From Acidobacteriaceae bacterium (GTDB lineage Bacteria > Acidobacteriota > Terriglobia > Bryobacterales > Bryobacteraceae), in assembly GCA_019243205.1 (NCBI GenBank), contig JAFAUR010000176.1:1-59957 (forward strand): 59,957 bases of DNA, in the 5' to 3' direction. Positions 24,722 through 46,714 of this stretch are shown piece by piece; the stretch's first letter is position 1, and each line of letters begins with the position of its first letter. The position numbers were made by a program, and so were the translations under genes. Under the pieces are notes generated by a model, which searched no databases, had not been told where the DNA came from, and saw only the letters and a list, made by a program, of their open reading frames with translations.

Positions 24722-25080
24722 CGCCAGAGCCTTCGCCACTATTACGCGCTTCACCTCTGGACCAGCGGTGAAGCTGAACCCGAGAAACTTCCGCTCCTGC
24801 CGTCGCGCTACCGCGCTCTTTGCTTCATTCACGTTGAGTTTGAGCTTGTGCGTGATGAACTGCGTAATGCTCTTCATCACGCGCTGACCTGCCCGCTCGC
24901 TGCGAACGTTAGATATCACAATCATCCGCATAGCGAACGAAACGAAGTCCACGGCGCTCCAACTCCCGGTCGAGTGCATCAAGCACAACATTGCTGAGCA
25001 GTGGCGAAAGCGACCACCCTGTGGGGTCCCTTCTACACTTGGGCCGACCAGTCCGTTCTCCATCACTCCCGCCGGACGGT
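24722..25080 (-). pseudogene. group II intron reverse transcriptase remnant, C-terminal half (RT domains ~3-7, start of X), frameshifted
   Basis: AGVMENGLVGPSVEGTPQGG, then in another frame LSPLLSNVVLDALDRELERRGLRFVRYADDCDI, then back to VRSERAGQRVMKSITQFITHKLKLNVNEAKSAVARRQERKFLGFSF. The YADD box and flanks are classic group II intron IEP sequence. Confidence 0.8.
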
Positions 25081-25239
25081 GGGATGCGAAGCTTGGCATC
25101 CCGACGGTGCTGGATCGATTTATCCAGCAAGCGGTGATGCAGGTTCTGCAACGGCGCTCATCAAGCAGTAGCGCAGGCACAGCAGTATGTCGCCGAAGGC
25201 TACGGCTGGCGCGTCGATCTTGATCTGGGGAGGTTTTTC
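25062..25239 (+). pseudogene. group II intron reverse transcriptase remnant, N-terminal part (RT domains ~0-2), on the opposite strand
   Basis: The plus strand reads KLGIPTVLDRFIQQAVMQVLQ (25089-25151). After a frame change and deletion it reads AHQAVAQAQQYVAEGYGWRVDLDLGRFF (25156-25239). These are the conserved RT1/RT2 blocks that should precede the minus-strand half. Confidence 0.7.
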
Positions 25240-25322
25240 CTATGGTGCGACACGGTAGAATCCGACGTCCACGAATCACGATGGCGTCGTTGGATTGCGT
25301 TACAGATGTCCGGCTGACTCCT

Positions 25323-29212: not shown

Positions 29213-30040
29213 TCATGACCCGGTGTTATCAGAGGCGGCAGCTGTTCCCACCAGCAGCATATAGATCGTCGACTCGTTTACGCCATCCAAACCCAGATAG
29301 CGGTCGATCGCCCGATCGTTATAACCGCCGATGTTAGCCGTCACTAAGTTCATTTCCTGCGCGGTCAGATTAGCATTTTGGGAAAGATGCCCTGCCTCAA
29401 ACAACACAAAACGATATCCGCGATCGCCGTATTTGAACGTGGAGCGTGCAAACACAGCCGAGATCATAAGGATTGCCGCGGCGCCGCGTCCTAAATCGCT
29501 CTGAACCATCATGCACGAGATGGTCTCTGATTCGTCGGCGTTTCGGAGAATGTCCAACGCATGGTCTTCGGGATCATAGTGATACAGTCCCGGCTGCAAT
29601 CCATGAACCCGCGTTGCATGTATGTAGATCTCGAGCGGATACAGTGCGCCGCCCGAGGGGATCACCCGAAAGGGCCGAGGATAGCTGGTTCCCGCATTGC
29701 TTCGGTTTACGCCGTAGCTCATCACCAGAATTTTGGCCAGCTGCTCAAGTGGCATAAAGCCCGAACCAAAGCTACGGGCCGTGTGCCTGGTGTGGAGAAC
29801 ATCATCGAAGGACTTGCTGGATGCGGGCAAGCTGGTAGGTAATGCAAGCTTAGGAAAGTCTGCGTATGGTTTCACGCGTCGCAGCATGTTCATGCCCGCA
29901 ACCACGGTGGCGTCGCTGGGCCAAAACTTAAACAGGTGATGCAACTCAACGAAACTCGTCTTAGAGTTTTCGTGGAATAGCTCCCAGTTCGCGTCGTAAT
30001 CGGATTGCAAGAAATGATAATCGAGAGATTCGAAGGCCAT
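29213..30040 (-). CDS. SagB/McbC-type FMN-dependent azoline dehydrogenase (set 1, B1)
   Basis: WELFHENSK N-terminal signature, RVIPSGGALYPLEIY, and FKYGDRGYRFVLFEAGH (Lys-Tyr motif present). Last gene of the RiPP operon. Confidence 0.9.
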   Translation of the reverse strand: MAFESLDYHFLQSDYDANWELFHENSKTSFVELHHLFKFWPSDATVVAGMNMLRRVKPYADFPKLALPTSLPASSKSFDDVLHTRHTARSFGSGFMPLEQLAKILVMSYGVNRSNAGTSYPRPFRVIPSGGALYPLEIYIHATRVHGLQPGLYHYDPEDHALDILRNADESETISCMMVQSDLGRGAAAILMISAVFARSTFKYGDRGYRFVLFEAGHLSQNANLTAQEMNLVTANIGGYNDRAIDRYLGLDGVNESTIYMLLVGTAAASDNTGS

Positions 30041-30046
30041 AGCTGG

Positions 30047-31393
30047 TTATGGAAAAGGATGTGGATACGGGTTATCGGGTTCGTTTCTTGCCAACCCGCG
30101 ATGGCCGAGCTTTCGAGGAACCTCGTAGAGACGGGTGACACCGAGAGCGCGGTTGCGATGCCCCATGTAAAGCGGGTGTGCACCGGGTACGACAACTCTG
30201 ACCACGTGCAGACCGAGCTCGGCGACGTCAGGAGTAGTTAGTTCGACAACGAGCGGTTCGAGGCCGGCGGCAACGGTGTTTTCTACCAATTTGCGAAGCT
30301 GTTCAGAGGGCGAACCCGCAGACAGATCCGGCTCATCGCAGAGATCGATCTGACGAGTGGACGACCAGGCAAATTCGGCGAACGGCTTGGCATATTGCGG
30401 ACAATAGAACCGCAAGTGATCGCGCTGGTCCTTCACGAGAGGATGTCCCCGATCCACTTCGACCGGCAGCGGTGGCGTGTAGCGAAGAAGCTGCCGGGCA
30501 TACATTCGCGTGTGCGCGAGTTCGTCAAGCGATTTCAGTAGACAACGTTCTGGTGAAGGATCCGCAGCCGCCGCAACGGCGACCGCCGGCGATGTTTCCG
30601 CGTTAGAGACGCCGACGGTCATGATGGCCGGAACGCCTATGTCAGTCGTGATGTCCATCAGGTACACCCTGATGCCGACAGCCTCGAATCGCGAGACCAG
30701 GTCACAACCAAAAGCCGGCAGAGTTTCATGGCGAATAACAGGACAACTCATCATCGCCTGCCATGTGATTGTGAACGCGTCACGTTCCAGAACTTCGCAA
30801 AGTCCGGAGATCGTAGCCTCCGCAATCGAACCGCCACAGGCCAATCCCGTCGAGATTGGCTGCAGAATAAAGGCACTGCGAGTTGCCCCGTGGTAATGAA
30901 ACGGGATGTAGACAGCTGCTGCCGGCACGAACACTCGCTCTCCGGTAACCAGCGATCTAGCCGGCGTCCAGTGCACAGGTGTATCGACTGTAAACGGATG
31001 CCAAAGGAAGCCTTCCGACAAATACTGCTCCGGAAGATACATGGTGAGAAGCTCAGGATGTACTGCGCGGAGGTTTAATTCGCGATGGGCCGCGAACCGA
31101 AAACCGGCAGGATCATAGATGGCGCTGCAATAGCGTTCGATGGCTTCACCCATCGCCTTAGCAATGGCGCTGTAGCGGTCTGTTGAGGCTCCACCGTTAT
31201 CACCGAAGTTACGCATTGCGGTGAAGCGAGACGCGTCGCACGCTTTCGAAAAGTAGTGGAAGAAATCGGGATCGTCATCATCGACGGGCAATTCTTCGAT
31301 CCGTTGAATGATCCCTACTTTCGGGTCGACCAATTGATCCCAAAGCCCAACTATTTGTTCCAGCCGTGCGCGGCTCCGGGTGCTCAGCGGCAT
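30047..31393 (-). CDS. YcaO-domain cyclodehydratase (set 1, D1)
   Basis: Canonical MGEAIERYCS and CEVLERDAF motifs. Pro-rich C-terminus NPYPHPFP. Confidence 0.9.
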   Translation of the reverse strand: MPLSTRSRARLEQIVGLWDQLVDPKVGIIQRIEELPVDDDDPDFFHYFSKACDASRFTAMRNFGDNGGASTDRYSAIAKAMGEAIERYCSAIYDPAGFRFAAHRELNLRAVHPELLTMYLPEQYLSEGFLWHPFTVDTPVHWTPARSLVTGERVFVPAAAVYIPFHYHGATRSAFILQPISTGLACGGSIAEATISGLCEVLERDAFTITWQAMMSCPVIRHETLPAFGCDLVSRFEAVGIRVYLMDITTDIGVPAIMTVGVSNAETSPAVAVAAAADPSPERCLLKSLDELAHTRMYARQLLRYTPPLPVEVDRGHPLVKDQRDHLRFYCPQYAKPFAEFAWSSTRQIDLCDEPDLSAGSPSEQLRKLVENTVAAGLEPLVVELTTPDVAELGLHVVRVVVPGAHPLYMGHRNRALGVTRLYEVPRKLGHRGLARNEPDNPYPHPFP

Positions 31394-31414
31394 GCAGACA
31401 ATTCCCGGGCGCGC

Positions 31415-32476
31415 TTATTCATGCGGAATCAGACTGCCGACAATCAGCGCCCGGGAAGCTTTTCGCATGATCTCGCCACAATCCGGACAGCGTGGGATCT
31501 TCAGTATACGGCGAACGGTGGAAGAGAATGAAAACAGATTCAGTTCGATGCTCCGGCCGGCTGTATCTGGCGGCGGGTACCCAGCAATGAATTTCACAAC
31601 CTCAATGGCCGCGATCTCGCCGAGCGCAGAGGCCATGGGAGGAAGCAGTCCCGCGGAAACCATGCTGCCCGGATTGGCGCTTGCGTGACGCCGAAGCGCT
31701 CGCCCGGCGGCATAGTTCGGATTGTTGGATTCCCTTCTCAAGAAGTAGCAGCGGAGACAGGCATTTTCATACGGGTGATTGAGAGGTCCCACATAGCCGA
31801 GCAGGTCCGCCTGCCAAACGGGAAGGAACGGCTTCTCGATTCTCAATGCGGTTCGGCTAAACTCGAGCAGCGCATCGCCTTGATCGAAGTCACTCGTTGC
31901 ACAGATAACCGAGCATTCTGACAGTTCTCCGTCGGAGGACAATTCGGGCACGCGTCGCAGGCGGTCTTCGCCCGGTTGGAATCCAACCGGTGCTACCTCG
32001 TTGTTCAAATTAGTGTCATCCACCAGCGTGATCCTGCCAATGCCCGATTCCAGGAGGCTGCGCAGCATCGCTCGCGCTATCAAAGTAACTCCTGCAACCA
32101 CAACATGCGCGTTCCCGAGCCGCTGTGGAGCATTGCGACCCTCCTCGCCCATGTTCCACCAGAATGCCGTTTGAAGTGACTCGAGGCTTGCCTCGTTGAC
32201 GTCCGGCCCCGGCTCTTCTGTGATGAGCCTCCGAAGCTGCATCGTGGTCAGCAAGTTGCCGACTTCGCCACGCAAATGTTCCGGAAAGCTATCCACAATG
32301 TCTTCGGGCGTACGGCTCCCATCGAACTGTTGGATGAGCGACTCGAGGATAGAGTGCACCTGAGCGCCACTAACTACCAGCTCATTGACGCCGCGCTTCA
32401 GAACCGCAGTATCATCAGAAACCCGGACGTATCGAAGATCGGTGCCGTACACTTTGTCCTCTCTGATTTTTGGCAT
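31415..32476 (-). CDS. TOMM cyclodehydratase C protein / E1-like leader-peptide-binding partner (set 1, C1)
   Basis: N-terminal RRE-like VLKRGVNELVVSGAQVHSILESLIQQFDGSRTPEDIV. Cys pairs CLRC ... CPDC. Adjacent to the YcaO gene. Confidence 0.85.
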   Translation of the reverse strand: MPKIREDKVYGTDLRYVRVSDDTAVLKRGVNELVVSGAQVHSILESLIQQFDGSRTPEDIVDSFPEHLRGEVGNLLTTMQLRRLITEEPGPDVNEASLESLQTAFWWNMGEEGRNAPQRLGNAHVVVAGVTLIARAMLRSLLESGIGRITLVDDTNLNNEVAPVGFQPGEDRLRRVPELSSDGELSECSVICATSDFDQGDALLEFSRTALRIEKPFLPVWQADLLGYVGPLNHPYENACLRCYFLRRESNNPNYAAGRALRRHASANPGSMVSAGLLPPMASALGEIAAIEVVKFIAGYPPPDTAGRSIELNLFSFSSTVRRILKIPRCPDCGEIMRKASRALIVGSLIPHE

Positions 32477-32511
32477 GCCGGCGTAATTGCTTGGTGAGCA
32501 ATCGCGCCGGC
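32477..32511 (-). promoter_or_regulatory. RNA stem-loop between the precursor gene and C1, ending at nucleotide -1 of the C1 start codon
   Basis: The mRNA sense reads GCCGGCG-CG-ATTGCT-CACCA-AGCAAT-TA-CGCCGGC followed directly by ATG. This gives 7 + 6 bp of stem around a 2x2 internal mismatch and a 5-nt loop, with no U-tract. Confidence 0.5.
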
Positions 32512-32531
32512 AAATTTATATTCCGGTAGCG

Positions 32532-32921
32532 TTATACGGCGAGGGGATCGACCTGCACCGCGGCTGAACAACAGGAGCAGCAGGGAGTACAGCAGCAGCA
32601 ACAGCTATCGCCTAATGCCTTAACATTCTGTGGAGTGTGGACACTAGTAAGCTTGTTTACTCCCTGGAAATTCGCGATCACCTGATATCGATAATCGGCA
32701 AAGAGACCGTCAATGGTAACCAGGTCGTGTGTAGTCAGCGCATTCACCTTGGGATTTTCCACAGGAGCAGGCGGCACACCAAAGGCCATCGCCATATCTG
32801 CAAAGTCGGCCGGGGTCATGCTGCGGACTGTGTGTGAGGTTTTGAAGCTGTCCAGTTTCTCTGCGGGAAAGATTTCCTCAACAGAGAACCGTTTCTTGTC
32901 TCCACCAGGTGGAGGATTCAT
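32532..32921 (-). CDS. RiPP precursor peptide with Cys/Ser/Thr-saturated core
   Basis: 129 aa. AGGAG lies 7 nt upstream of the ATG. The C-terminal region reads ..KALGD SCCCCCTPCCSCCS AAVQVDPLAV. It sits between two cyclodehydratase/dehydrogenase sets. Confidence 0.8.
   Translation of the reverse strand: MNPPPGGDKKRFSVEEIFPAEKLDSFKTSHTVRSMTPADFADMAMAFGVPPAPVENPKVNALTTHDLVTIDGLFADYRYQVIANFQGVNKLTSVHTPQNVKALGDSCCCCCTPCCSCCSAAVQVDPLAV
32565..32606 (-). other. predicted core-peptide segment SCCCCCTPCCSCCS (codons 106-119 of the precursor)
   Basis: The mRNA reads AGC TGT TGC TGC TGC TGT ACT CCC TGC TGC TCC TGT TGT TCA. Confidence 0.7.
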
Positions 32922-32936
32922 CTTTACTCTCCTTTC

Positions 32937-33779
32937 TCATAACGTTGTTACTTCCGCTACGCGGCCCTGCCGGCCGCCCCTTTCATGCGCACCAGCTTTG
33001 CCCACCGCTACGATGAAAATCGTGGATGCGGTGAGTCCGTCGAGCGCAAGAAAATCGTCTATTGCCGGGTCAAAGTATTCACCGGTGTTCACGCAGGACA
33101 ATCGAAGAGACCCTGCAATCAGGTTCAGATTGCGGACGACTGCGCCGGCTTCCTGATGTACAAACCGATAACCGCGATCTCTATATCGCAAAACAGAACG
33201 CTCCGGCACAGCTGAGATCAAAACGATCAAGGCGGCCGAGAGCGCGACACGCCCATCTATCAATGCGGCGGCGATCTTCTGCGATTGATCACCGGAACGC
33301 AACAGTCGCAGTGAATTGCCGGGTGGGTAATAGTGATAAAGACCACGTTCGAGGCCCGCGATGCTCGCGTTGTGAACAAAAAGTTCGAGTGGATAAGATG
33401 AATTTTCAGAATGAACAGCCCGGCGCTGGCGCGCGCTGTCCGGATCCGGACGCCGTTCCATAATGCCGTAGCTGTAGTGCAACAGCGCCGCCGCCGCGTC
33501 TAGCGGGACTGTGATCGGTTCCAGTTCGGTAACCACCGCGTTACGCGCGAGCGCTTCCTGTAAAGGCTCCGATCCCAGGGCCGCAGGGTTCGGCAGTTTG
33601 ATCTCCGGGTAGCTCTCGAATCTCAGCGATTCCAGTATCTGCTTCTGATAGAAAGCCGTCACTTCTGCAGGCAGGATGCCGTCGTTCGAAAACAATTTTG
33701 AATTCTCATGGAAAAGCTCCCACGGCGAGTCATGCTCGGGTAACGGCGTCGTCAGGAGCTCCCAAGTTGTCGAAATCAC
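32937..33779 (-). CDS. SagB/McbC-type dehydrogenase paralogue (set 2, B2), divergent
   Basis: WELFHENSK signature and DRGYRFVHQEAG are present. However, B2 has LRY where B1 has FKY, and HSENSSYP where B1 has PSGGALYP. Its GTG start overlaps the D2 stop (GTGA). Confidence 0.85.
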   Translation of the reverse strand: MISTTWELLTTPLPEHDSPWELFHENSKLFSNDGILPAEVTAFYQKQILESLRFESYPEIKLPNPAALGSEPLQEALARNAVVTELEPITVPLDAAAALLHYSYGIMERRPDPDSARQRRAVHSENSSYPLELFVHNASIAGLERGLYHYYPPGNSLRLLRSGDQSQKIAAALIDGRVALSAALIVLISAVPERSVLRYRDRGYRFVHQEAGAVVRNLNLIAGSLRLSCVNTGEYFDPAIDDFLALDGLTASTIFIVAVGKAGAHERGGRQGRVAEVTTL

Positions 33780-35101
33780 GACATCACTCCTTTTCGTGGG
33801 AAAGGATGGGGCAACGGATTATCTCCGGTCTCTGGCCTAATGCCGCCGAGGCTCAGCCCTTGCGGAACTTCCCACAACCGGCACCCTCCTAAAGCGCGTG
33901 AACGGTAGCCGAAGAACAGTGGATGCAGACCCGGAATGATGGCACGGATAACTGTCAGCTCGAGGTCTGCGACGTCTGATGTCGTCAGGTTTGCAAGTAC
34001 TGTGTAATAACCAGCCGCCTCGATATTGTTGAGAAGCTTTTGAAGATCGCGACCCGGATATCCGGTAGATAAATCCTCTAACTGGTCGAATTCGATTCGT
34101 TCGCGCGACGAGAATACAAAATCGGCTTGTGCGGAGTTCCGCGGATCGGACCAGAACCGCAAATGCTCACTCTGATCACGAACGCTTTGCGGATCTCGAT
34201 ATCCACAATCCTGCGCTCTCAACAGCTGGCAATACTGATGAACGTGAGCAAGCATTTCGAGGCTTTTACGGACTCCATTTTCCGGAGTCAAACTGGTTCC
34301 GGCTGCAAAGGTCCGGGCTGGCGCTCCCGGGCGAGAATCTGACAGCACTGCAAGAATGCTGGGTATTCCGAGGTCGAACTCAACCTTGAAGAGCGTGACC
34401 GAAGCACCAGTACTTTCAAATCGCGTCACAAGCTCATAATTGGCGTCGCTCAAGGTCTCCACTCGGATTTGTGGCATGCTCAGCCTCGCCTGCCAAAGCA
34501 GCGCAAGAGCATCACATTCGATCACATCGCAAATTGCCTCTGTCGCTGCGCAAGCGGCAATCCAGTGGCAGGCAAGACCGGTTGAAGTGGGCGGCATAAT
34601 CGGCGCCTCGTCAAACCCGAGGACGGCGGGAGCGGTCAGGAATCGCATCGCGGAAGGAATAAAAACAGATGCCTCTGTTACCGGGTTTACGGCTTCGCTC
34701 CACTGAACCGGTGTGTGTCGACTAAAAGCGACCCAGGGGAAATCGGGCTGCGTATACTGTTCCTCGCTAAACAAGGCGAAATCTTCGGGAACAACACAAG
34801 GAAAAGGCGCGCCGTGGGCTGGGCCAATCGGATGCTTGCCATCTTCCTCCGAGATCAGCGCCGCGCAATACGAGGCGATGCCGTCGAGAACCACGCGTGT
34901 CACAGCACTCTTCCGATCTGCCCCGGCTGCCCCGCCCGGTCCCGGAATCGCGTACTCGCTAAATGCGCGCGTGCTGCACGGGTGAACCACGTAGTGGAAA
35001 AATGATGGAGCGCCTGGCGCAAGACGCATCTCCGCTACTGAGCTGAGCACGCCCACCTCATTATCGACTAACTTGTCGATCAGCTGCGTGATTCCGTTCA
35101 T
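33776..35101 (-). CDS. YcaO-domain protein paralogue (set 2, D2), with substituted acidic motifs
   Basis: It aligns by eye with D1 along its length and has the Pro-rich C-terminus NPLPHPFP. The motifs read VLDGIASYCAA and CDVIECDAL. The start is taken at MNGITQ, which forms an ATGA overlap with the C2 stop. Confidence 0.85.
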   Translation of the reverse strand: MNGITQLIDKLVDNEVGVLSSVAEMRLAPGAPSFFHYVVHPCSTRAFSEYAIPGPGGAAGADRKSAVTRVVLDGIASYCAALISEEDGKHPIGPAHGAPFPCVVPEDFALFSEEQYTQPDFPWVAFSRHTPVQWSEAVNPVTEASVFIPSAMRFLTAPAVLGFDEAPIMPPTSTGLACHWIAACAATEAICDVIECDALALLWQARLSMPQIRVETLSDANYELVTRFESTGASVTLFKVEFDLGIPSILAVLSDSRPGAPARTFAAGTSLTPENGVRKSLEMLAHVHQYCQLLRAQDCGYRDPQSVRDQSEHLRFWSDPRNSAQADFVFSSRERIEFDQLEDLSTGYPGRDLQKLLNNIEAAGYYTVLANLTTSDVADLELTVIRAIIPGLHPLFFGYRSRALGGCRLWEVPQGLSLGGIRPETGDNPLPHPFPRKGVMS

Positions 35102-36171
35102 TGGCCCTCTTCTGTTCTTGGCATCGATAAAGATGCGCGCGTCAAAGCTGTAGAGGGAGTCCGGTTGAGGCGGGAACAAACGGGACAACGCGGGACCTTT
35201 AGGACCTGCAGCGGTTTCATCTCGCTGCCAAGCAAGTTGACTTTGATCAGAGTCCCCGGCCTCGCGATGCTGCCGCCAATGCCAAAGTATTTCGTAATCT
35301 CGAGGGCAGCAATGTCACCGAGAATGGTTGCCATGGAAGGATGAAATCCGCCGATAGCCTGCTTATGAATGAAGGCGGCTTCCACTGCTCGTCGGCTTTG
35401 AAAGTCGAGCAAATGCGCATTCTGCCGGAGCCGGACGCATTCGAAACAGGGGGTTTGACCGGGCACAACAATCGGACCGACATACCCGACGAGGTCCTGA
35501 AGCATCACGGGTACGAACTGCAGGTTGTGGAGCACGCAAAATTCATTCCATAACCGCATTTGTTCGACGCCGCCGCTGTCGGAAGTGGCGATAACACAGT
35601 CGAGAGTATCCGGATCAAGATCTTCAGCGTATTCACTTACAGGGGCAGACCATTCCCGCATCCGAAGAGCACCGCCGTCATCAAACAGAGCTTCATTACG
35701 AAGCAATGGTTGGTCGATGACCTCAAGCTCTTCAGCGCCCGATGCTCGCAGACCGGCTATGAGCTGACGCGAAATATAGTTTACGCCTGTTATCTTGATG
35801 CGCTTCGCATTTAATCTCTCGCGGACCTGCGCAGTTTGTGTACCGAAGTGCCAATAGAAAACCTCGAGCTGCGATTCAGAGGTGCGCCCATCGGCCGCCG
35901 GTGTCTCCTCGCTCACGAGGATCGACCGGCTCAGCAGATGATCAATCAAGGCTTCAGCACCCGCGACTTCGCCCGCTGGGAAGAGCGCGACGAGTTCGTC
36001 ACGGGTTGCGCCATTGCGGGCGCAATCGAGCAGGCGGCCTACCGCGTCTGCGGCTCCGGTTCCGGCGATCCTCAGTTCGACTCGTCCGCGCTTGAGTACG
36101 AGAGCGTCCCCTGTGTCGATCAGGTTTACCGGGAGGACCCGAAGCTTTTCGGATTGGAGTTCCAGTTTCAT
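35098..36171 (-). CDS. TOMM cyclodehydratase C protein / E1-like partner (set 2, C2)
   Basis: RRE-like LVLKRGRVELRIAGTGAADAVGRLLDCARNGATRDELV. Cys pairs CFEC ... CPVC. ATGA overlap with the upstream radical SAM stop. Confidence 0.85.
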   Translation of the reverse strand: MKLELQSEKLRVLPVNLIDTGDALVLKRGRVELRIAGTGAADAVGRLLDCARNGATRDELVALFPAGEVAGAEALIDHLLSRSILVSEETPAADGRTSESQLEVFYWHFGTQTAQVRERLNAKRIKITGVNYISRQLIAGLRASGAEELEVIDQPLLRNEALFDDGGALRMREWSAPVSEYAEDLDPDTLDCVIATSDSGGVEQMRLWNEFCVLHNLQFVPVMLQDLVGYVGPIVVPGQTPCFECVRLRQNAHLLDFQSRRAVEAAFIHKQAIGGFHPSMATILGDIAALEITKYFGIGGSIARPGTLIKVNLLGSEMKPLQVLKVPRCPVCSRLNRTPSTALTRASLSMPRTEEGQ

Positions 36172-37547
36172 GCGTTCAGGATCGGGAACTCACAACTGGG
36201 CTGCGGGGGAGCAGGTTGAAATGTGCGCTCGGCTTCTACCATCGTCAACGCGCTTGGGCGATGCGGCGCATACACGCCTCCAAAAACCCGATACAGGTCT
36301 TGATACTCGTGTTCAAAGACACTCTTCGGCAAGGCGGTTTGTGTGACTGGGTGCTGCAGATCAAATAATTCCCAGTTAGGCCTCCCGTTGGGCTGGCGCT
36401 CCGTTATGGCATCGAACGTATCGAGCGCTTCGGTTCCCGGCAGCGGCGTCAAAACCGTGAACGATGGATAATCGACCCGGTTGTGCTCAATAAAGCGGAT
36501 TAACTGCTTGAAGCAGCGCTTGGTGTAATTGGTGTTCACTATGAACCCGCCAAACACATGTATGCCCAATTGTTTCGCTGCCCGAAGGCCGTTCTCTATC
36601 TGCGCTACGTCGAGCCGTTTGTTGTACTCCTTCAGTTCGTTCGCGGTTACCGCTTCAATGCCAATGAATAGCCGTTCCAGGCCGATTTCAGCCCACATGG
36701 CCATCAACTGTGGTTGGCGCAGAAGTGTATCGATGCGGCAGTACGTGAAGTAGCGTTTGCGGATTCCCGCAGCCCTGATAGCCTGGGCAAGCAGCGTCAT
36801 CCGCTTGCCATTTATAAAAGCCTCGTCATCTACCAGGAAAATCGATTGTTCTTGAACAGAGGCGATCTCCGCAACTACACGGTCGACATCACGCATGTGA
36901 TAACGGCCATCTTGGATCTTCCAAAGCGAGCAGAAGGAGCAGCGATACGGGCATCCAACCGTTGTGCGCAGTAGTGCGATTGGTTTCATCCAATCGATGA
37001 AATAACTTTGGCGGTCCGGACCGGCAATGAAACGATTTGGCGAGGGAAGTTGATCGATGTTGTACGAGAGAGGGTTACCGCCGTCGACGAACTCGTCGCC
37101 TGTGCGCGCCCAGACACCGGGGATGGTCTCCGGAATACCGCGTTCCAAGCCACGCAGGATCGCGCGAAACGGATGAACTCCTTCCCCTCGGACAACAAAA
37201 TCGAACTGAGGCAGGAAGAAATCCTCCGGAAGCAGCGTGGCGTGATGCCCGCCAACGACTACCCGGCATGCCGGCAAGAGCCCCTTGATTCGCTTTGCGA
37301 TCGCGATGTTACGCAGGACGTGCATGCTGTACCCGGTGAGAGCTGCAACATCGGGCCGATATTGGGTCAAGGTGGAGTCGAGATCATTCGGGTGCAGCCG
37401 TAAATCGAGAAGCCGGACATCATGGCCATCGAGTTCCGCGCCCGCTGCCAAATATTCCAGAGCAAGCGGTTCAGCTACGGCGCCCAGATCTCCGTACCCA
37501 ATGATCTCCTTGCGCAGACTGGGATACAAAAGAAGAACTCTCAACAC
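36168..37547 (-). CDS. B12-binding-domain radical SAM enzyme (class B, putative methyltransferase) #2
   Basis: N-terminal B12-binding-like VLLLYPS..LEYLAAGAELDGHDVRLLDL. Radical SAM cluster motif GCPYRCSFCSLW. The start is taken at the GTG at 37547, overlapping the methyltransferase stop; the ORF extends to 37637. Confidence 0.85.
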   Translation of the reverse strand: MLRVLLLYPSLRKEIIGYGDLGAVAEPLALEYLAAGAELDGHDVRLLDLRLHPNDLDSTLTQYRPDVAALTGYSMHVLRNIAIAKRIKGLLPACRVVVGGHHATLLPEDFFLPQFDFVVRGEGVHPFRAILRGLERGIPETIPGVWARTGDEFVDGGNPLSYNIDQLPSPNRFIAGPDRQSYFIDWMKPIALLRTTVGCPYRCSFCSLWKIQDGRYHMRDVDRVVAEIASVQEQSIFLVDDEAFINGKRMTLLAQAIRAAGIRKRYFTYCRIDTLLRQPQLMAMWAEIGLERLFIGIEAVTANELKEYNKRLDVAQIENGLRAAKQLGIHVFGGFIVNTNYTKRCFKQLIRFIEHNRVDYPSFTVLTPLPGTEALDTFDAITERQPNGRPNWELFDLQHPVTQTALPKSVFEHEYQDLYRVFGGVYAPHRPSALTMVEAERTFQPAPPQPSCEFPILNA

Positions 37548-38377
37548 GCCCCCTGCCTCTGTTCCTCTCTGTGCGCAGTGACCATGAAGCTGTGCGGCAC
37601 GTCCTTGAGCGTTCGCGGCAAAACCGGATAGGGCCAACGTCCTTGGCCTGCTCCAGGTTCTCCGGGAGACGTTACATGAGCTGACCAGCCGAGCAAACGA
37701 AGCAGTCCCTCGGGGTCATCAGTAGCCGAAAGCCAAGGTGTCCCGTTCTTAGCGAGGGAGTCCAGCGCTGTTCTCATCCAGGGACTTGTCAGGAAAGAAC
37801 GGCTAATGAAATCCGCCGCGAGAGCGCTGCCAGGCGCGCTGTCTTCCGATAAACGAGCGAGTATCTCCGCTACAGCGTTCTCTTGTAAGTAATAGAACAG
37901 ACCCTCAGCAATCCAGAGAGAGGGCGCGTTAGCTCGAAATCCAGCAGCCCGAAGCGCGCTGGTCCACGAGCCTTCCAGATCCGTGCCTACCGCGACTCTG
38001 CGACACAGGGCTGGAGAATCCCTGCCCAGGATTCTGTTCTTAACCTTGAGCAACTCGGGATCATCGAGTTCAAAGACAGTTGTACTCGCCGGCCACTCCA
38101 GCCGGAGTGCGCGAGTGTCCATTCCTGCTGCCACGAGTACCACCTGTCGAATGCCGTCGTTCGCTACGGAGACAGCGAATTCATCGAAGAAGCGCGTGCG
38201 GATCGCTATATAGGGGCCCACATCCGGCATGCCACGCTCGGGCGAGCGAAGCATTTTGAACCCTTCCTCTCCCGCCAGGGATCGCGCGAAGGGATCTGTG
38301 AAAAGACGATCGGGACGTTCCGATTCCAGAGCCCGAATCGCAGCTGTCATCAGAGCGGTATGTGCGACCTTTCTCAA
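37541..38377 (-). CDS. class I SAM-dependent methyltransferase, leucine carboxyl methyltransferase (LCMT / TIGR00027-like) family
   Basis: TALMTAAIRALES..LFTDPFA, VLVAAGMDTRALRL and VFELDDPELLKVK are typical of this O-methyltransferase family. Confidence 0.85.
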   Translation of the reverse strand: MRKVAHTALMTAAIRALESERPDRLFTDPFARSLAGEEGFKMLRSPERGMPDVGPYIAIRTRFFDEFAVSVANDGIRQVVLVAAGMDTRALRLEWPASTTVFELDDPELLKVKNRILGRDSPALCRRVAVGTDLEGSWTSALRAAGFRANAPSLWIAEGLFYYLQENAVAEILARLSEDSAPGSALAADFISRSFLTSPWMRTALDSLAKNGTPWLSATDDPEGLLRLLGWSAHVTSPGEPGAGQGRWPYPVLPRTLKDVPHSFMVTAHREEQRQGAC

Positions 38378-38587
38378 GACGTCGATTCGCCCTGATAAAA
38401 CTTCCCAATAGACAACGGGAGTGTTGAGGTTGAACCTGCGTCGAACTGTCCCGCAGACATACTTTTCCGCAAACCTTCGAGAGGGGATCAGTATGACATA
38501 GCGGAAGCGTTTCGAAAAGCTATTTTTTTATTTTTATGAATATGAACTCATTGTGAGTTTCTTCGCTGAGCTTTCTAATACTTCCGG
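38378..38587 (-). promoter_or_regulatory. AT-rich 210-bp intergenic gap inside the cluster (candidate internal promoter)
   Basis: This is the only sizeable non-coding gap between 32.5 and 42.0 kb. It contains the A/T tract CTATTTTTTTATTTTTATGAATATGAA. I could not identify a convincing -35/-10 pair. Confidence 0.25.
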
Positions 38588-40252
38588 TTATGCACGCGGC
38601 AGCGGTGGCGATTTACGGCTCAAAATTTCGTGTAACGCAGCGAACTCGGGTGCCGCGCGAATAGCGCTCGCGGATACATCCTTACCCAAAAAGCGATTGA
38701 AAGCGCTTACGCCGAGGCGCACATCGTCAACAGAGAAACCATTTGCGTACAACAAAAACTCCGTCCAAGCCTCGCCGCGCACAGCATTATGAACGGCGTA
38801 CCTCTGCTCTTCCGCCACTTTTCTGGCAAGTACTTGCGCGGTTCGCGAATCCATGGTGTTGTGTTTCCAGTCCATACCCATACCCTCGATACCGAATTCC
38901 ACCGCACGGGCTCCCACCGGTGTGGATGGAATGTAGACCCACGTGCAGACCGTGCAGAACGGAAGCTGCATCTCGTCCAGGAAACTTACAATCTTCCAGG
39001 CCGAATCTTCCGTCTCTCCCGGATAACCCACGATGAAGTTCGCATGAACCTCAATGCCGTATTTGCGTAGGTGGTCAATACCGCGCTTGTACTGCTGTAC
39101 CTGGGCGACCTTGTTCATGTTTTTCAGAATCCGATTGTCAGCGGATTCCAACCCGGCAAAAACCGCCCGGCAGTGCGATTCCTTCATCAGCCGGGCTGTC
39201 TCTTCGTCCGCATATTGCGGACGAAAAAAGGAATACCATTCGAAATCGAACTTGGCCAATACTTTGAGTAACTGTTTGAAACGGCCAAGCGGCACGTTGA
39301 AGGTATCGTCCGTAAAAATCAGGGAGCGCACCGAGCCCAGCTTGCGCAGTTCCTGCAGCTCCCGATCTACAACCTCCACCGGTGTCAACGTGAGCGGTCC
39401 CTGATTAACCGGGTATTCACAAAAGGCGCACTTGAACGCACAGCTTCGCGCGGTGCGTATGTGAACGGTGTGATACAGGTGATCCGTTTGCGGTAATCGG
39501 CTCCAGTGAATGAATGGTTCGTCCGTCTGGAAGGGCGGCTCCGGCGCGTCCGGGGGTGGGATGACGCTGCGGCCACAACGTATGTAGGTACGGGGAATGC
39601 TCGGGTCCGTGATGAGCGCCTGGAGCGAGGACCGTCGAAGTATCTCAAGTAAGGGCACTTCGCCGCGCGGGCTCACAACGTACAGATCCGCGCCATAGGA
39701 TTGCAATTGTGAAAGAAAAATTGGGCGAGGAAGATTTTTCTCGTAACTTACAAGCATTAAGCCCCCGAGAACGATCAGCGCATCTGGCCACTCTTTGCGG
39801 ATTTGGGCGATCGCAAGGGGAATGGTTTCTCTCTCGGCGGCGTCGAAGAGAAGCGTAGTGGAAAGCAGAATGAATCGGGGCTTGTATTCGCACCCGAGGG
39901 CGCTCAAGCGCTCGCGGTTAACCGAGTTAGCGACGCGCACCTTGAACCCGTGGCGCGAAAGCACGTCAAGGTAGTAACTGCCCGCAAGCAGGGTTAGGTT
40001 GAACGGATCATAGCGTTCATGCTCCCGGGTCGAGCCCGTTTTGACCCAGCTTAGGAATCGGCTAAAGTCATACAGCTTTCCGTCGATGACAAGGTCCACC
40101 TCATCCTTCATGAACAATTCATCGGATAATGCGGCGTGAATCCCGCGCGTTCGCGCCATGGACGGCCGCTCGTAGTCGAGATCTGTATCGTTGTGCCACC
40201 GATCCTCGTTGGCATAGAAAGGAATGAACAGCGCGTCCAGAGTCTCAGGCAT
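38588..40252 (-). CDS. B12-binding-domain radical SAM enzyme (class B) #1
   Basis: 554 aa. Radical SAM motif ARSCAFKCAFCEYP preceded by a Rossmann-like B12-binding-type region (RFILLSTTLLFD..LIVLGG). The start overlaps the hydrolase stop by 8 nt (ATGCCTGA). Confidence 0.85.
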   Translation of the reverse strand: MPETLDALFIPFYANEDRWHNDTDLDYERPSMARTRGIHAALSDELFMKDEVDLVIDGKLYDFSRFLSWVKTGSTREHERYDPFNLTLLAGSYYLDVLSRHGFKVRVANSVNRERLSALGCEYKPRFILLSTTLLFDAAERETIPLAIAQIRKEWPDALIVLGGLMLVSYEKNLPRPIFLSQLQSYGADLYVVSPRGEVPLLEILRRSSLQALITDPSIPRTYIRCGRSVIPPPDAPEPPFQTDEPFIHWSRLPQTDHLYHTVHIRTARSCAFKCAFCEYPVNQGPLTLTPVEVVDRELQELRKLGSVRSLIFTDDTFNVPLGRFKQLLKVLAKFDFEWYSFFRPQYADEETARLMKESHCRAVFAGLESADNRILKNMNKVAQVQQYKRGIDHLRKYGIEVHANFIVGYPGETEDSAWKIVSFLDEMQLPFCTVCTWVYIPSTPVGARAVEFGIEGMGMDWKHNTMDSRTAQVLARKVAEEQRYAVHNAVRGEAWTEFLLYANGFSVDDVRLGVSAFNRFLGKDVSASAIRAAPEFAALHEILSRKSPPLPRA

Positions 40253-41075
40253 ATGCTTCGAGTTTTCGGCTGTGCGCCGTCCAGTGTTCCTCGAGGATGT
40301 TATGTACCGCTCGGGGGTCCTCCAGCAGACAGAGGTGTCCCAAAGACGGAAGGTAACGGCGCTCGCAGTTTGGAAGGTATCGCCGAATCAACTCCCCACA
40401 GCGTTTGAAAGCAGGAAGCTCGTTGTCTCCCACTAATACGAGAGTGGGTGTCGGAGAGTTACGCAGCTGCTCAACGCTCTGACGATGATTACTGAGGCGT
40501 CCATAAGATCCATCTTGCAGTTCCCACCAAGGATGCTTTCCAACCAATCCCCACAATCTGTTCCACAATGCCGGATGGGCTTCGGCCCCTTTGAAGATAT
40601 TTGGCGGCGATTGCATCCAGAGCCGTCGAAGTTCAGGCGTAAAGCCTTCGCGACGGTAGATGGCGGCTAGCTCCTCATAACGCGCGCCCACGTCACTATC
40701 CTGCGGACCGCCCCCGAGTGCGGGGGCTCCCAACGTCAAAGACCGAAAGGAATCCGGAAACTCGATAATGATCTGAAGCCCGAGCAGCGTACCGAATGAG
40801 AGTGCCGCGATGTGCTCGATACCTCTCGCCAGTGCCGAACGTGCAACTCGCCGCGCAAGTGAAGGCAGATTCTCAGACGCAGGCAGCGGCAACGAGTAGC
40901 CGTGTCCTGGAAGATCGATGCCCGTGTGATCCCAATCCGGAAGCAGTTCCCAAAGCTCCGACCAAGCGCTCGAATCTATGGTGTAGCCATGCAGCCAAAG
41001 GACCTTGTCCCGCTTGCCCGGCGAGACACGGGCGACAAGATCCCTATCGAACAGAACAAGTGGCGTGTGCTTCAT
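40245..41075 (-). CDS. alpha/beta-fold hydrolase
   Basis: VLWLHGYT..DLPGHGYS oxyanion region, nucleophile elbow AALSFGT, C-terminal LGHLCLLEDP His. The start is taken at MKHTPL; the ORF extends to 41126. It overlaps the Rieske gene 3' end by about 32 nt. Confidence 0.8.
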   Translation of the reverse strand: MKHTPLVLFDRDLVARVSPGKRDKVLWLHGYTIDSSAWSELWELLPDWDHTGIDLPGHGYSLPLPASENLPSLARRVARSALARGIEHIAALSFGTLLGLQIIIEFPDSFRSLTLGAPALGGGPQDSDVGARYEELAAIYRREGFTPELRRLWMQSPPNIFKGAEAHPALWNRLWGLVGKHPWWELQDGSYGRLSNHRQSVEQLRNSPTPTLVLVGDNELPAFKRCGELIRRYLPNCERRYLPSLGHLCLLEDPRAVHNILEEHWTAHSRKLEAYA

Positions 41076-41994
41076 TGGCCGCGGACTCTTCGTCTTCGAA
41101 GCGCATACAGAATTTCTGGAAGGCAAGGATCAGGTCGTCTTCCGGGGTTAGCCGATTCGGCGCATCGTGGATGCGATTTTCCCAGATCACCAGATCTTGT
41201 TCATAAGCAAGTTTGCTGTCGCGCAGAAGAGCACGGATGGCTTGCTGCGAAGGCGGGCTGCCATCCTCAGTAGCGGGCGCCGCAACAGACACGCGGATGG
41301 TACAGCTGCCGTTGCCGTTCGGCGTAGATCCGGAGATCACCGTATTTTCACCCAACCGGCTGACGCACACATTTGGACTAATCACTTGAGCAAGAAATTG
41401 CATTTCCGTGCCTGCATCCTGCACCGCGCCATTGTGCCAGGCTGTTTCGAATGCCTCCGCGTAGAACGTGCCGGAAAGATGTAATTCGCCGCTGTCCCCG
41501 GGACTCAGCTTGAGATTCGGGCGGCGTTTGAGACGATGCACGGATTGAAAGTGCGCCGGGTCAAAGCCATTCTCTACGACGAGTTCAGCCGGAGCTTGTG
41601 CGGTCATAGTAAACCCAGGCACTAAGTAATGTGTTGCGTTCAGCTCTTCGAGCAGACGGGTGAGCCCGTTCTCATGCCGCTCGGACAAGAGGACGAACAA
41701 TAGACCGCCAACGGCTAGTGTGCGGTAACGGGGCGTTTTAAATTGACAGTCGGAATCTGAACCGAGGCCGATGCGGTAACCATGGAACGGACAGATGATT
41801 GCGCCTCTGTCCAGCGTGCCGCCGAAGGCCAGATGAGCTCCTCGGTGCGGGCATGTTGCATTGTACGCGCCAAACTCATTTTCCTGCTTGACTAACAGAA
41901 GCCGAAGGTTGCCAATACGAAGCGGTGTGACTTTATCGCGAATCTCTCTTTCGAATCCGACCTGGTACCAACCGCGATAGAGATGCTGAGGCAT
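41044..41994 (-). CDS. Rieske [2Fe-2S] non-heme iron oxygenase
   Basis: CPHRGAHL-x17-CPFHGYRI Rieske motif. Mononuclear iron motif ENGFDPAHFQSVH (E-x3-D-x2-H-x4-H). GGGAGGA RBS upstream of the ATG. Confidence 0.85.
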   Translation of the reverse strand: MPQHLYRGWYQVGFEREIRDKVTPLRIGNLRLLLVKQENEFGAYNATCPHRGAHLAFGGTLDRGAIICPFHGYRIGLGSDSDCQFKTPRYRTLAVGGLLFVLLSERHENGLTRLLEELNATHYLVPGFTMTAQAPAELVVENGFDPAHFQSVHRLKRRPNLKLSPGDSGELHLSGTFYAEAFETAWHNGAVQDAGTEMQFLAQVISPNVCVSRLGENTVISGSTPNGNGSCTIRVSVAAPATEDGSPPSQQAIRALLRDSKLAYEQDLVIWENRIHDAPNRLTPEDDLILAFQKFCMRFEDEESAANEAHATCSVR

Positions 41995-45616: not shown

Positions 45617-46714
45617 TCAGTGGTCGGCGTGCGCAAGAACCGTTTGCGGGATAGTGACGGGACTATCGAGGCTAAAGCCGATCAATGTGCCGGCGGGCAG
45701 CATGGCCGTTCTCTTCGTTGCTGCATATGTAATCCTTCGACCGCCGGCCGTTGATGCTGATGTGATGCCTGCACCTTCTTCGGCCCCCGCTACAGCTCCC
45801 ATCACGGCACCGAACGCGGCTCCGGTGGCCATTCTGGCGCTGTTCAGAAGATTGTTGTGGCTCCCTTGTACCTCACAGATGCTGCTTTTGATCGGTACCG
45901 TGCTTTCGTCGGCCATTGTAAGGTGCGTGAGAGTTATCGTCAGATCCGAACTTCCACCGAGCACTCCTCCCCTACGGACTAGAGCCACACGCCCCAGGAC
46001 GCTTGAATCGGCGTTAGATACTACGACTCCGTTCACAAGCAACGAGGAAACCAGAGTGGCGCGGAATGTATCCCCGCTTCGGTTTTGCTTGCTCGACAGG
46101 GATTCGGATAGGCGAACTCGAACAAGTGTTCCGCGAGGAACGGTAACCACTCCCACCTCCGAGCCTGCGGCCGGTACTTCCGGCTTTGAGGGTTGTTCGT
46201 TCCGTTGTTGGTGTCCTTCGGGCGCCTGAAACGGCGCAACTTGAAGCGGGACGCGCTCGGCAGTCGTACTCGGCAAGTGAGGTGGTCTCGGAGCCGTGCG
46301 GGTCTGCTCAACTTTGCCGACGTTTGGTTTGTCCGAACTGGCTGTTCCGGCTTTACCATCAACGGCGGGACTCGTTTCTGGATGATGCGCACTCGTTCCC
46401 GCGATCGCGACACTCAAAGCGCCCGACCCGGCGCTTTCAGGAGCTGGCTGCCCGTCGTCATCACTGGAGGAAGAAGTTTGCTCAGTCGTGGTGCTGTTCG
46501 GTTCTGATGAACTCGCCGCGCCACTGGTCGAAAGGCCACCCGGGCGCGAGTCCGTGGTGCCTCGCTCGTACGCCGCCCCAGGCAGCGAGGGCCGAATCGC
46601 GTGCACAGGTGACGGGTCACGAAAGACTTTTGAGAAGATCAAGCAGCCGGCAAACGCGGTCATCAGCGATAGAACGAAACATGCAACAATTTGCGGGGTC
46701 TTGTTAGCCATCAA
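45617..46714 (-). CDS. hypothetical membrane-anchored protein with Ser/Thr/Pro-rich linker and Gly-zipper-like C-terminus
   Basis: N-terminal TM IVACFVLSLMTAFAGCLIF, a low-complexity S/T/P-rich region, and C-terminal ATGAAFGAVMGAVAGAEEGAG. Confidence 0.6.
   Translation of the reverse strand: MMANKTPQIVACFVLSLMTAFAGCLIFSKVFRDPSPVHAIRPSLPGAAYERGTTDSRPGGLSTSGAASSSEPNSTTTEQTSSSSDDDGQPAPESAGSGALSVAIAGTSAHHPETSPAVDGKAGTASSDKPNVGKVEQTRTAPRPPHLPSTTAERVPLQVAPFQAPEGHQQRNEQPSKPEVPAAGSEVGVVTVPRGTLVRVRLSESLSSKQNRSGDTFRATLVSSLLVNGVVVSNADSSVLGRVALVRRGGVLGGSSDLTITLTHLTMADESTVPIKSSICEVQGSHNNLLNSARMATGAAFGAVMGAVAGAEEGAGITSASTAGGRRITYAATKRTAMLPAGTLIGFSLDSPVTIPQTVLAHADH

Follow-up and report, generated by a model that had tools for sequence, protein, structure and literature searches.

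A compact operon predicted to make a heavily azole-modified peptide in an Acidobacteriaceae bacterium, with a second, remodelled heterocyclase/dehydrogenase set

What kind of peptide is produced by a gene cluster that appears to carry its azole-forming machinery twice, and what is the second copy for? The question is raised by contig JAFAUR010000176.1 of an Acidobacteriaceae bacterium (assembly GCA_019243205.1), of which we analysed the stretch from position 1 to 59,957 (below, the window). Thirteen consecutive minus-strand open reading frames (ORFs) fill the 12.8 kb between positions 29213 and 41994 and specify, in the order of transcription, a Rieske oxygenase, an alpha/beta hydrolase, a radical S-adenosylmethionine (SAM) protein (rSAM#1), an LCM methyltransferase, a second radical SAM protein (rSAM#2), the C2, D2 and B2 proteins, a precursor peptide, and the C1, D1 and B1 proteins (Table 1). 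The original prediction, made from the letters of the sequence, had listed these genes in this order, and they were found exactly there; all 13 assignments are backed by matches to Pfam and NCBIfam hidden Markov models (HMMs), which bear out the predicted YcaO, SagB, C-protein, B12-radical SAM, LCM and Rieske families. We conclude that the operon is real, compact and conserved, and that its predicted product is a peptide with many azoles, from an apparently undescribed family within a familiar class of chemistry. Our preferred interpretation, which we consider probable, is that this operon, maybe consisting of two transcription units split at an AT-rich gap, matures a peptide from an undescribed family of azole-containing peptides that are made by ribosomes and modified after translation (RiPPs), and that the second set of C, D and B proteins acts as a scaffold.

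Set 1 (C1, D1 and B1) has every catalytic hallmark of a thiazole/oxazole synthetase. D1 matches PF02624 (E = 2e-69, 235 bits) and TIGR03604 (290.5 bits, over the cut-off of 219). Its GEAIERY and CEVLERD segments align with the ExxER helices of the cyclodehydratases TruD, LynD and MusD, the latter segment also with two other YcaO proteins of solved structure, and the chain terminates exactly at ...PHPFP. In McbBCD, the synthetase of microcin B17, little activity is left when a Glu that coordinates Mg is mutated, and it matters that the C-terminal Pro has a free carboxylate; in the dehydrogenase of the same complex, the phosphate of flavin mononucleotide (FMN) is bound by two Arg residues, and a Lys-Tyr pair is catalytic (PMC6395948). 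B1 carries the RxTARxF, PSGGALYP and FKYGDRGYRF motifs, the Lys-Tyr pair included, and matches TIGR03605 (154 bits, cut-off 78.4) and, over residues 84-265, PF00881 (66.5 bits). C1 matches TIGR03882 (52 bits, cut-off 36.9), TIGR03603 (56 bits) and ThiF. An intact YcaO, an E1-like partner, a SagB dehydrogenase and an adjacent precursor rich in Cys, Ser and Thr place the cluster, by its predicted proteins, among the azole RiPPs, also called thiazole/oxazole-modified microcins (TOMMs) or linear azole-containing peptides (LAPs).

The precursor ends in ...ALGDSCCCCCTPCCSCCSAAVQVDPLAV and consists of a folded helical leader (approximately residues 10-85, positions 32667-32894), a variable linker, the 14-residue core SCCCCCTPCCSCCS with 9 Cys (residues 106-119, positions 32565-32606), and a follower, AAVQVDPLAV (positions 32535-32564). 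The core follows the pattern S-CCCCC-T-P-CC-S-CC-S, and the follower the motif AA....P. The ATG start codon has a ribosome-binding site, AAGGAG, 7 nt on its 5' side. A hairpin after the stop codon of a precursor gene is a common way of raising expression of the precursor over that of the enzymes, and such an element (dG -26.4 kcal/mol, z = -4.9) follows the precursor gene here. A strong hairpin of unrelated sequence is found at the same place in the related loci L001, L002, L004, L005 and L006, that is, in all six orthologous loci when the window is counted; the stem-loop is probably an attenuator or a mRNA-stability element.

Set 2 (C2, D2 and B2) consists of paralogs of the set 1 proteins (identity 37% between D1 and D2, 35% between B1 and B2, and 28% between C1 and C2). 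D2 matches PF02624 (E = 1e-43, 150 bits) and stays, with 203.7 bits, just under the TIGR03604 cut-off of 219. C2 matches TIGR03603 (82 bits) and TIGR03882 (49 bits) and keeps a CxxC...CxxC motif; a match of C2 to Lant_dehydr_N is at chance level only (E = 0.0044, below the cut-off). B2 matches TIGR03605 (104 bits), and its match to the Pfam nitroreductase model is limited to residues 170-261. Two full heterocyclase/dehydrogenase sets had been predicted; this is correct for set 1 and overstated for set 2, in which the Mg/ATP motifs of YcaO, the free Pro and a part of the FMN site of SagB have been lost. Specifically, D2 has LDGIASY and CDVIECD where D1 has GEAIERY and CEVLERD, MLAHVH replaces ELAHTR, and a tail of six amino acids, RKGVMS, follows PHPFP. 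When about 80 YcaO proteins retrieved with D2 were compared, every canonical one had GExxERY and CExxERD and the terminus PHP(F/Y)P, and approximately 26 proteins of the D2 type had xD(A/G)(V/I)(A/S)xY, almost always CD(V/A)(I/V)ECD, and a tail of the form PHPF(P/S)-R(K/R)G... In the D2 type, the Glu and the Arg of both ExxER helices are lost, and the C-terminal Pro is no longer terminal. A few more divergent YcaO lineages are degenerate in other ways, and the distant copy in locus L008 is also without ExxER. B2 lacks RxTARxF and PSGGALYP, and Lys-Tyr is changed to Arg-Tyr in four of five orthologs. The features expected of a second functional heterocyclase and dehydrogenase, i.e., the ExxER helices, the free C-terminal Pro and the Arg motif for the FMN phosphate, are absent from D2 and B2.

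Set 2 proteins are 52-65% identical between orthologs, compared to 56-59% for C1. Set 2 is therefore as conserved as C1, so that it is not decaying and is functional in some sense; it is under purifying selection. One explanation would be that both C/D/B sets are active and share the work, for example with thiazoles (from Cys) made by set 1 and oxazoles (from Ser and Thr) by set 2, or with one of the two blocks flanking the Pro for each. Selection on both sets agrees with this, as do the Zn-type CxxC...CxxC motif kept in C2, the YcaO fold and PxPxP of D2, the (R/K)Y-x-DRGYRF of B2, and the extra Ser in the core of the window (CCSCCS, compared to the common CCCC form); there are also precedents with two D proteins, namely, the coryneazolisins and the bottromycin pathway, the latter with two YcaO enzymes (PMC4603692). 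We nevertheless consider shared catalysis unlikely: changes of the kind seen in the ExxER helices and at the terminal Pro of D2 cripple McbD, two motifs are missing from B2, the cores of single-set clusters have the same Thr, and some of these cores have Ser, and locus L034 pairs set 2 with an ordinary CCSC-TP-CCCC core. Moreover, single-set clusters carry nearly the same core, and set 2 is thus not needed for ring formation. All loci with set 2 have the gene for rSAM#2 next to that for C2, and wherever its position is known it lies directly on the 5' side of C2: in the window, L001, L004, L005, L006, L033, the distant L034 and L008, and the contigs of relatives P0020 and P0029. The most likely role of set 2 is that of a scaffold, non-catalytic or re-purposed, by which the peptide is offered to rSAM#2.

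A word-indexed search of 5.8 billion proteins retrieved 36 precursor homologs, all of them metagenomic, except for one from a peat-soil metagenome-assembled genome (MAG), Solibacteraceae 'Ca. Sulfopaludibacter' SbA4 (Acidobacteriota), which is also the only carrier among 185,579 species representatives. When 1.84 billion cluster representatives were searched with a profile, 76 matches were obtained, with the shared core consensus VS-CCCC-TP-CCCC-AA-x-x-x-x-P-F. In the resulting alignment of 94 sequences (relatives P0001-P0036 and P0157-P0216), the core is near-invariant (CCxC-TP-CCxC-AA....P), with the mean per-column pairwise identity of 0.83 in the core, 0.34 in the leader and 0.16 in the linker. 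The core is far better conserved than the leader, the reverse of the usual RiPP pattern of a conserved leader and a variable core, which may point to a product with a fixed target or with a physiological role.

The leader is predicted by AlphaFold2 (AF2) to be a helical domain with high confidence (predicted local distance difference test score, pLDDT, 94-98), followed by a disordered core, and no match to this domain was found in PDB by Foldseek (best E 2.4). The well-known leader families NHLP and Nif11 were considered and rejected, as none of the 36 members matches TIGR03793 or TIGR03798 even at E <= 10, and there is no fold match. Several precursors have additional N-terminal or zinc-binding elements: twin-arginine (Tat) signals, consisting of RRxF(L/M/V)K, a hydrophobic stretch and AxA, are found at the N-termini of P0206, P0209, P0211, P0212 and P0213, and zinc-ribbon extensions of the form CxxC...CPHCG in P0169, P0188 and the precursor of L008 (6294-6758, minus strand). 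These sequences suggest that the 'leader' may behave like a domain of a protein, and that export in the folded state may occur in some members.

This raises the possibility that the leader is never removed. The product would then be a small, folded protein ending in a polyazole tail, or else a metal-binding or cofactor-like molecule whose physiological role is conserved, in contrast to a hypervariable antibiotic that is secreted. The precursors of the pyrroloquinoline quinone (PQQ) or mycofactocin type likewise have a core that is more conserved than the leader. The inverted conservation, the confidently folded domain, the Tat signals and zinc ribbons, and a cluster free of transporter, immunity and protease genes would all fit such a molecule. 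On the other hand, peptidases of various kinds adjoin some of the family members, the linker between leader and core is variable, as in RiPPs that are cleaved, and metal binding, as well as any partner enzyme using such a cofactor, is hypothetical, so that we regard a retained leader as distinctly unlikely.

Within the follower, A120, A121 and P126 are invariant. If the AA....P(F) motif were the signal for a macrocyclase encoded elsewhere in the genome, the product could be a polyazole closed head to tail into a macrocycle, like those of the cyanobactin, telomestatin or YM-216391 type, and the P0029 contig has, adjoining the cluster, an S8 protease that carries the domains PatG_D and PatG_C. 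There is, however, no PatG-like or any other protease in the 60-kb window or in L001, L002, L006 and L033, and other lineages have unrelated peptidases, all of which makes a macrocycle of this type improbable. The additional peptidases include, apart from the macrocyclase-type protease, a 1197-aa S8 peptidase on the P0029 contig, a Peptidase_C70/C39_2 protein in L008 (6779-8068, minus strand), and a 1163-aa M36 fungalysin-like protein in L034 (15874-19365, plus strand). Since different lineages have different peptidases, proteolytic maturation seems to be lineage-specific.

The Rieske oxygenase and the hydrolase are conserved in their catalytic residues. The Rieske protein matches PF00355 (E = 3.5e-13) and KshA_C, and its CPHRGA..GG / CPFHGxRI and ENxFDxxHFxxVH motifs are invariant in 10 homologs, indicating that both metal sites, the [2Fe-2S] ligands and the mononuclear iron, are intact; its nearest relatives of solved structure are KshA and SxtT, at just 24-28 bits. 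The hydrolase has an invariant (A/G)LSFG nucleophile elbow, the His of GHLCxLE and a conserved acid, i.e., a Ser/His/acid triad. We rejected the idea of a BotH-like epimerase: the triad is present, there is no match to BotH, and the nearest PDB entries are generic esterases.

Both radical SAM proteins had been predicted to be of class B, i.e., cobalamin-dependent, and both are consistent with this architecture, rSAM#2 by its sequence and rSAM#1 by a modelled structure. rSAM#2 matches PF02310 as well as PF04055; the nearest named models are HpnR (the best NCBIfam match, 238 bits), BchE and ApyD, all below cut-off. rSAM#1 matches PF04055 (E = 3.7e-24, motif CAFKCAFC) and has no Pfam match for a B12 domain, for which the support comes from the PhpK family and the predicted fold: the match to the PhpK-family model TIGR04479 is full-length (residues 52-518) with 344 bits, below the model cut-off of 600, and the AF2 model, with a pLDDT of 90.8, gives end-to-end alignments with the cobalamin radical SAM methylases TsrM (the best Foldseek match, E = 3.6e-17, 583 columns), MgmA, TokK and CysS. 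More than 100 homologs of rSAM#1 are at least 59% identical to it. The gene predicted to encode a carboxyl methyltransferase of the LCMT type is correctly assigned at the level of family, with matches to PF04072 (E = 5.5e-51, 173.6 bits) and TIGR00027 (227.8 bits, above cut-off); its best PDB match is ML2640 (118 bits), which places it in the ML2640/TIGR00027 group.

In the pathway that we propose, C1 would bind the leader, D1 would use ATP to cyclodehydrate Cys and probably also Thr and Ser, and B1 would oxidise the azolines, giving two contiguous polyazole blocks with a single Pro as the hinge between them. The two cobalamin-type radical SAM enzymes would C-methylate unactivated carbons, rSAM#2 most likely with the peptide presented to it by set 2 as a non-catalytic or re-purposed scaffold, and the LCM enzyme would O-methylate a carboxylate. 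The Rieske oxygenase and the hydrolase appear to be tailoring enzymes that are widespread in the precursor superfamily; the former probably hydroxylates the peptide, and the latter probably performs a hydrolytic step, which could be the removal of the follower, the removal of the leader or the cleavage of an ester. The invariant T-P and A-A positions in the core region are, speculatively, the obvious candidate sites for the tailoring enzymes.

Several points speak against this scheme. Every chemical step is deduced from homology, the product is a predicted one, and for the Rieske oxygenase, the hydrolase, the two radical SAM enzymes and the LCM enzyme, substrate as well as site is putative. 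It is gene adjacency that connects set 2 as a scaffold with rSAM#2. D2 keeps not only the YcaO fold and PxPxP, but also one of the four Glu, with two others conservatively changed to Asp, and B2 keeps (R/K)-Y and DRGYRF, so that residual or altered catalysis is possible. Finally, no protease, transporter or immunity gene for the cluster was found in the 60-kb window, which leaves release and export of the peptide unexplained. In the boldest version of the hypothesis, the invariant CCxC-TP-CCxC core would mature into a hinged bis(polythiazole) whose physiological task is conserved (for instance metal binding, a function like that of a cofactor, or action on a fixed molecular target), unlike a variable antibiotic, and, in the clade of the window, a complete but catalytically dead C2/D2/B2 would have been co-opted as the substrate scaffold for rSAM#2. 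We offer this version as doubtful but worth stating; we know of no pseudo-enzyme scaffold of this kind in RiPP biosynthesis.

The unusual gene complement noted in the original prediction is unusual as a combination, but it is not a one-off, as the cluster belongs to a conserved modular family. Five or more further contigs from soil metagenomes carry the gene set, and one Solibacteraceae MAG has the central block of eight genes. In L001, L002, L006 and L033 the set is complete, with the LCM, Rieske, hydrolase and rSAM#1 genes forming a block convergent with the core block; L004, L005 and the P0020 contig cover a part of it, and the P0029 contig has it with variations. Such recurrence of a syntenic gene set is far beyond chance. 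Eight superfamily loci have a single C/D/B set, 49-59% identical to D1, and none of them has set 2, the radical SAM proteins or LCM; six single-set loci (L012, L014, L017, L025, L028 and L032) show a Rieske gene, accompanied by the hydrolase in five of the six. The commonest combination is thus a precursor, one C/D/B set, a Rieske oxygenase and a hydrolase, to which the clade of the window adds two radical SAM proteins, the LCM methyltransferase and set 2. L034 has rSAM#2-C2-D2-B2 and set 1, with no Rieske or hydrolase gene within 21 kb, and L008 has both sets, rSAM#2, the hydrolase and rSAM#1, with no Rieske or LCM gene. These loci resolve into five modules, all carried by the cluster in the window: the precursor with C1/D1/B1; Rieske with hydrolase; rSAM#1, found in company with the hydrolase; rSAM#2 with C2/D2/B2; and LCM.

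An azole cluster of a different make in a Gemmatimonadales MAG (L007; GCA_011772375.1, WVZQ01000112.1, 1-12727) contains a copy of rSAM#1 that is 65% identical and two copies of the hydrolase, along with two fused E1-YcaO proteins of the cyanobactin type, a ThcOx-type oxidase, an asparagine synthetase and a second, small radical SAM protein; a scan for Cys-rich ORFs and an HMM search found no precursor within 21 kb of it. Other variations were noted in individual loci. On the P0029 contig (JGI 3300056388), an extra ThiF-like gene follows B1, and a class-I methyltransferase takes the place of LCM. Candidate tailoring genes in L028 (8108-11589) and L012 (12219-13457), identified from N-terminal motifs alone, encode a short-chain dehydrogenase/reductase (SDR), an FAD amine-oxidase-like protein (shared by the two loci) and a P450-like ORF. 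Proteins of 602 aa and unassigned family near L033 and L034 are unrelated to each other and were set aside.

The boundaries of the cluster are sharp, because it is flanked at one end by genes for an amylase and an esterase (carboxylesterase), and at the other by genes for a molybdopterin oxidoreductase and a fucosidase, none of them related to it. Within the cluster, neighbouring genes overlap by 4-32 nt or are at most 55 nt apart, the exception being the 210-bp gap, which is AT-rich and present as predicted. The overlaps are 4-8 nt long, apart from that of the Rieske and hydrolase genes, which measures 32 nt and is seen also in L002, L006 and L033; they are consistent with translational coupling. 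We reassigned three start codons from the N-termini of orthologs and from overlapping stop and start codons: that of D2 to ATG 35101, with an ATGA overlap with the C2 stop; that of rSAM#2 to GTG 37547, where orthologs begin with MKILLLYPS, with a GTGTTGA overlap with the LCM stop; and that of the hydrolase to ATG 41075, in keeping with ortholog N-termini and the common 32-nt overlap. The gap is a possible internal promoter or regulatory region. A consensus scan found no sigma-70 match in it on the minus strand, the counts of sigma-70 promoters and intrinsic terminators in the window are at or below shuffled expectation and therefore carry no information, and there was no Rfam match at the gathering threshold, and hence no cobalamin riboswitch, nor any tRNA in the window.

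Table 1. Positions, strand and supporting evidence for the features of the azole-peptide cluster, in the order of transcription
Feature	Positions	Strand	Support
Rieske non-haem-iron oxygenase, 316 aa, first gene	41044..41994	-	PF00355, KshA_C
Alpha/beta-fold serine hydrolase, 276 aa from ATG 41075 (longest ORF from 41126)	40245..41075	-	Abhydrolase_6/_1
Radical SAM #1, 554 aa, predicted cobalamin-type architecture, PhpK-like	38588..40252	-	PF04055, TIGR04479
AT-rich intergenic gap, 210 bp	38378..38587	-	sequence
LCM / TIGR00027-family SAM-dependent methyltransferase, 278 aa	37541..38377	-	PF04072, TIGR00027
B12-binding radical SAM #2, 459 aa from GTG 37547 (longest ORF from 37637)	36168..37547	-	PF02310 + PF04055
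C2, E1/ThiF-like partner of set 2, 357 aa	35098..36171	-	TIGR03603, TIGR03882
D2, YcaO paralog, remodelled active site, 441 aa from ATG 35101	33776..35101	-	PF02624
B2, SagB-like paralog, 280 aa	32937..33779	-	TIGR03605
Precursor peptide gene, 129 aa	32532..32921	-	ribosome-binding site, homologs, AF2
Stem-loop 3' of precursor stop, reaching C1 start codon	32476..32512	-	folding energy
C1, E1/ThiF-like leader-binding partner (predicted) of set 1, 353 aa	31415..32476	-	TIGR03882, TIGR03603, ThiF
D1, canonical YcaO cyclodehydratase, 448 aa	30047..31393	-	PF02624, TIGR03604
B1, SagB-type FMN dehydrogenase, 275 aa, last gene	29213..30040	-	TIGR03605, PF00881

The rest of the window consists of housekeeping and glycan-utilisation genes, including CarboxypepD_reg-type TonB outer-membrane proteins, GH42 and fucosidase, as would fit a chromosome of an acidobacterium. 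Three ORFs of 301-365 aa have no Pfam match (24350-25279, minus strand; 45617-46714, minus strand; 47012-47917, plus strand); they do not adjoin the cluster in other loci and are probably unrelated to it.

If our interpretation is true, the operon defines a new family of azole peptides from hard-to-culture soil bacteria. The clade of the window probably belongs to Acidobacteriota of the Solibacteraceae type, an assignment based on the SbA4 MAG and on the genes of the window, and relatives of the wider family occur in other phyla. The predicted product would have up to 13 azoles in 14 residues, decorated with C-methyl, hydroxyl and O-methyl groups. A Rieske oxygenase is a recurrent component of this family, and the leader is predicted to be a folded domain without relation to NHLP or Nif11. 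The higher conservation of the core than of the leader argues for a fixed target or a physiological role, and a whole paralogous synthetase that has lost its catalytic residues, but is still maintained by selection next to a B12 radical SAM enzyme, makes a testable case of pseudo-enzyme recruitment. The compactness of the cluster, 12.8 kb on one strand, makes it amenable to synthesis and heterologous expression.

How does this system compare with those already known? The prediction that the gene combination is absent from the characterised families is upheld by a literature search outside the subscription journals, which found no paper with the core motif or with the combination of YcaO, Rieske and B12 enzymes, and none on azole RiPPs that mentions a Rieske protein; the 2015 TOMM census makes no mention of Acidobacteria, radical SAM or Rieske proteins, and PDB searches revealed no solved structure close to the cluster proteins. 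Thiopeptides were rejected, as there is no LanB-type dehydratase or [4+2] pyridine synthase among the 13 genes or in the flanks. With the cyanobactin-like polyazoles (telomestatin, YM-216391 and curacozole), the system would share long azole runs and a follower-like C-terminal motif; here, however, C and D are separate and not a fused heterocyclase, the core has 14 residues and 9 Cys, and we rejected assignment to that macrocycle class, as the window is without PatA/PatG and a PatA/PatG-type protease is seen in the P0029 relative alone.

Like the cluster, bottromycin biosynthesis combines YcaO enzymes with several C-methyltransferases of the B12-radical SAM type, a protein of the alpha/beta-hydrolase fold, an O-methyltransferase and a follower peptide. 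The bottromycin YcaO enzymes are stand-alone, without C protein or SagB, and both are active, one of them forming the macroamidine; the precursor is leaderless, and BotH has no catalytic triad. A bottromycin-like assignment was rejected, given the C and B proteins, the long leader, the Ser/His/acid residues kept in the hydrolase and the lack of a BotH match in the PDB search. The long, structured leaders of the proteusins (NHLP), which are recognised as a protein domain (PMC12455567), resemble the leader discussed here, and proteusin clusters likewise have B12-radical SAM C-methyltransferases and sometimes YcaO cyclodehydratases. The proteusins, whether polytheonamides, aeronamides or azole-containing, were rejected as a home for this peptide on account of the different leader family, with no NHLP/Nif11 match and no fold match in PDB.

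The remaining comparison is with plantazolicin and McbBCD. The leader described here is a folded domain of about 100 aa, whereas plantazolicin precursors have about 45 aa in total, and the cluster is without the N-terminal Arg, the PznL-type N-methyltransferase, the cluster-encoded protease and the ABC exporter of plantazolicin. Compared to both systems, it adds the Rieske oxygenase, the serine hydrolase, two cobalamin-type radical SAM proteins, LCM and the degenerate second set, and its core is invariant across the family. As in plantazolicin and McbBCD, separate C, D and B proteins would act on an adjacent precursor in which two runs of heterocyclisable residues are parted by one or more non-cyclisable ones, and the catalytic motifs of McbD and McbC are found also in D1 and B1.

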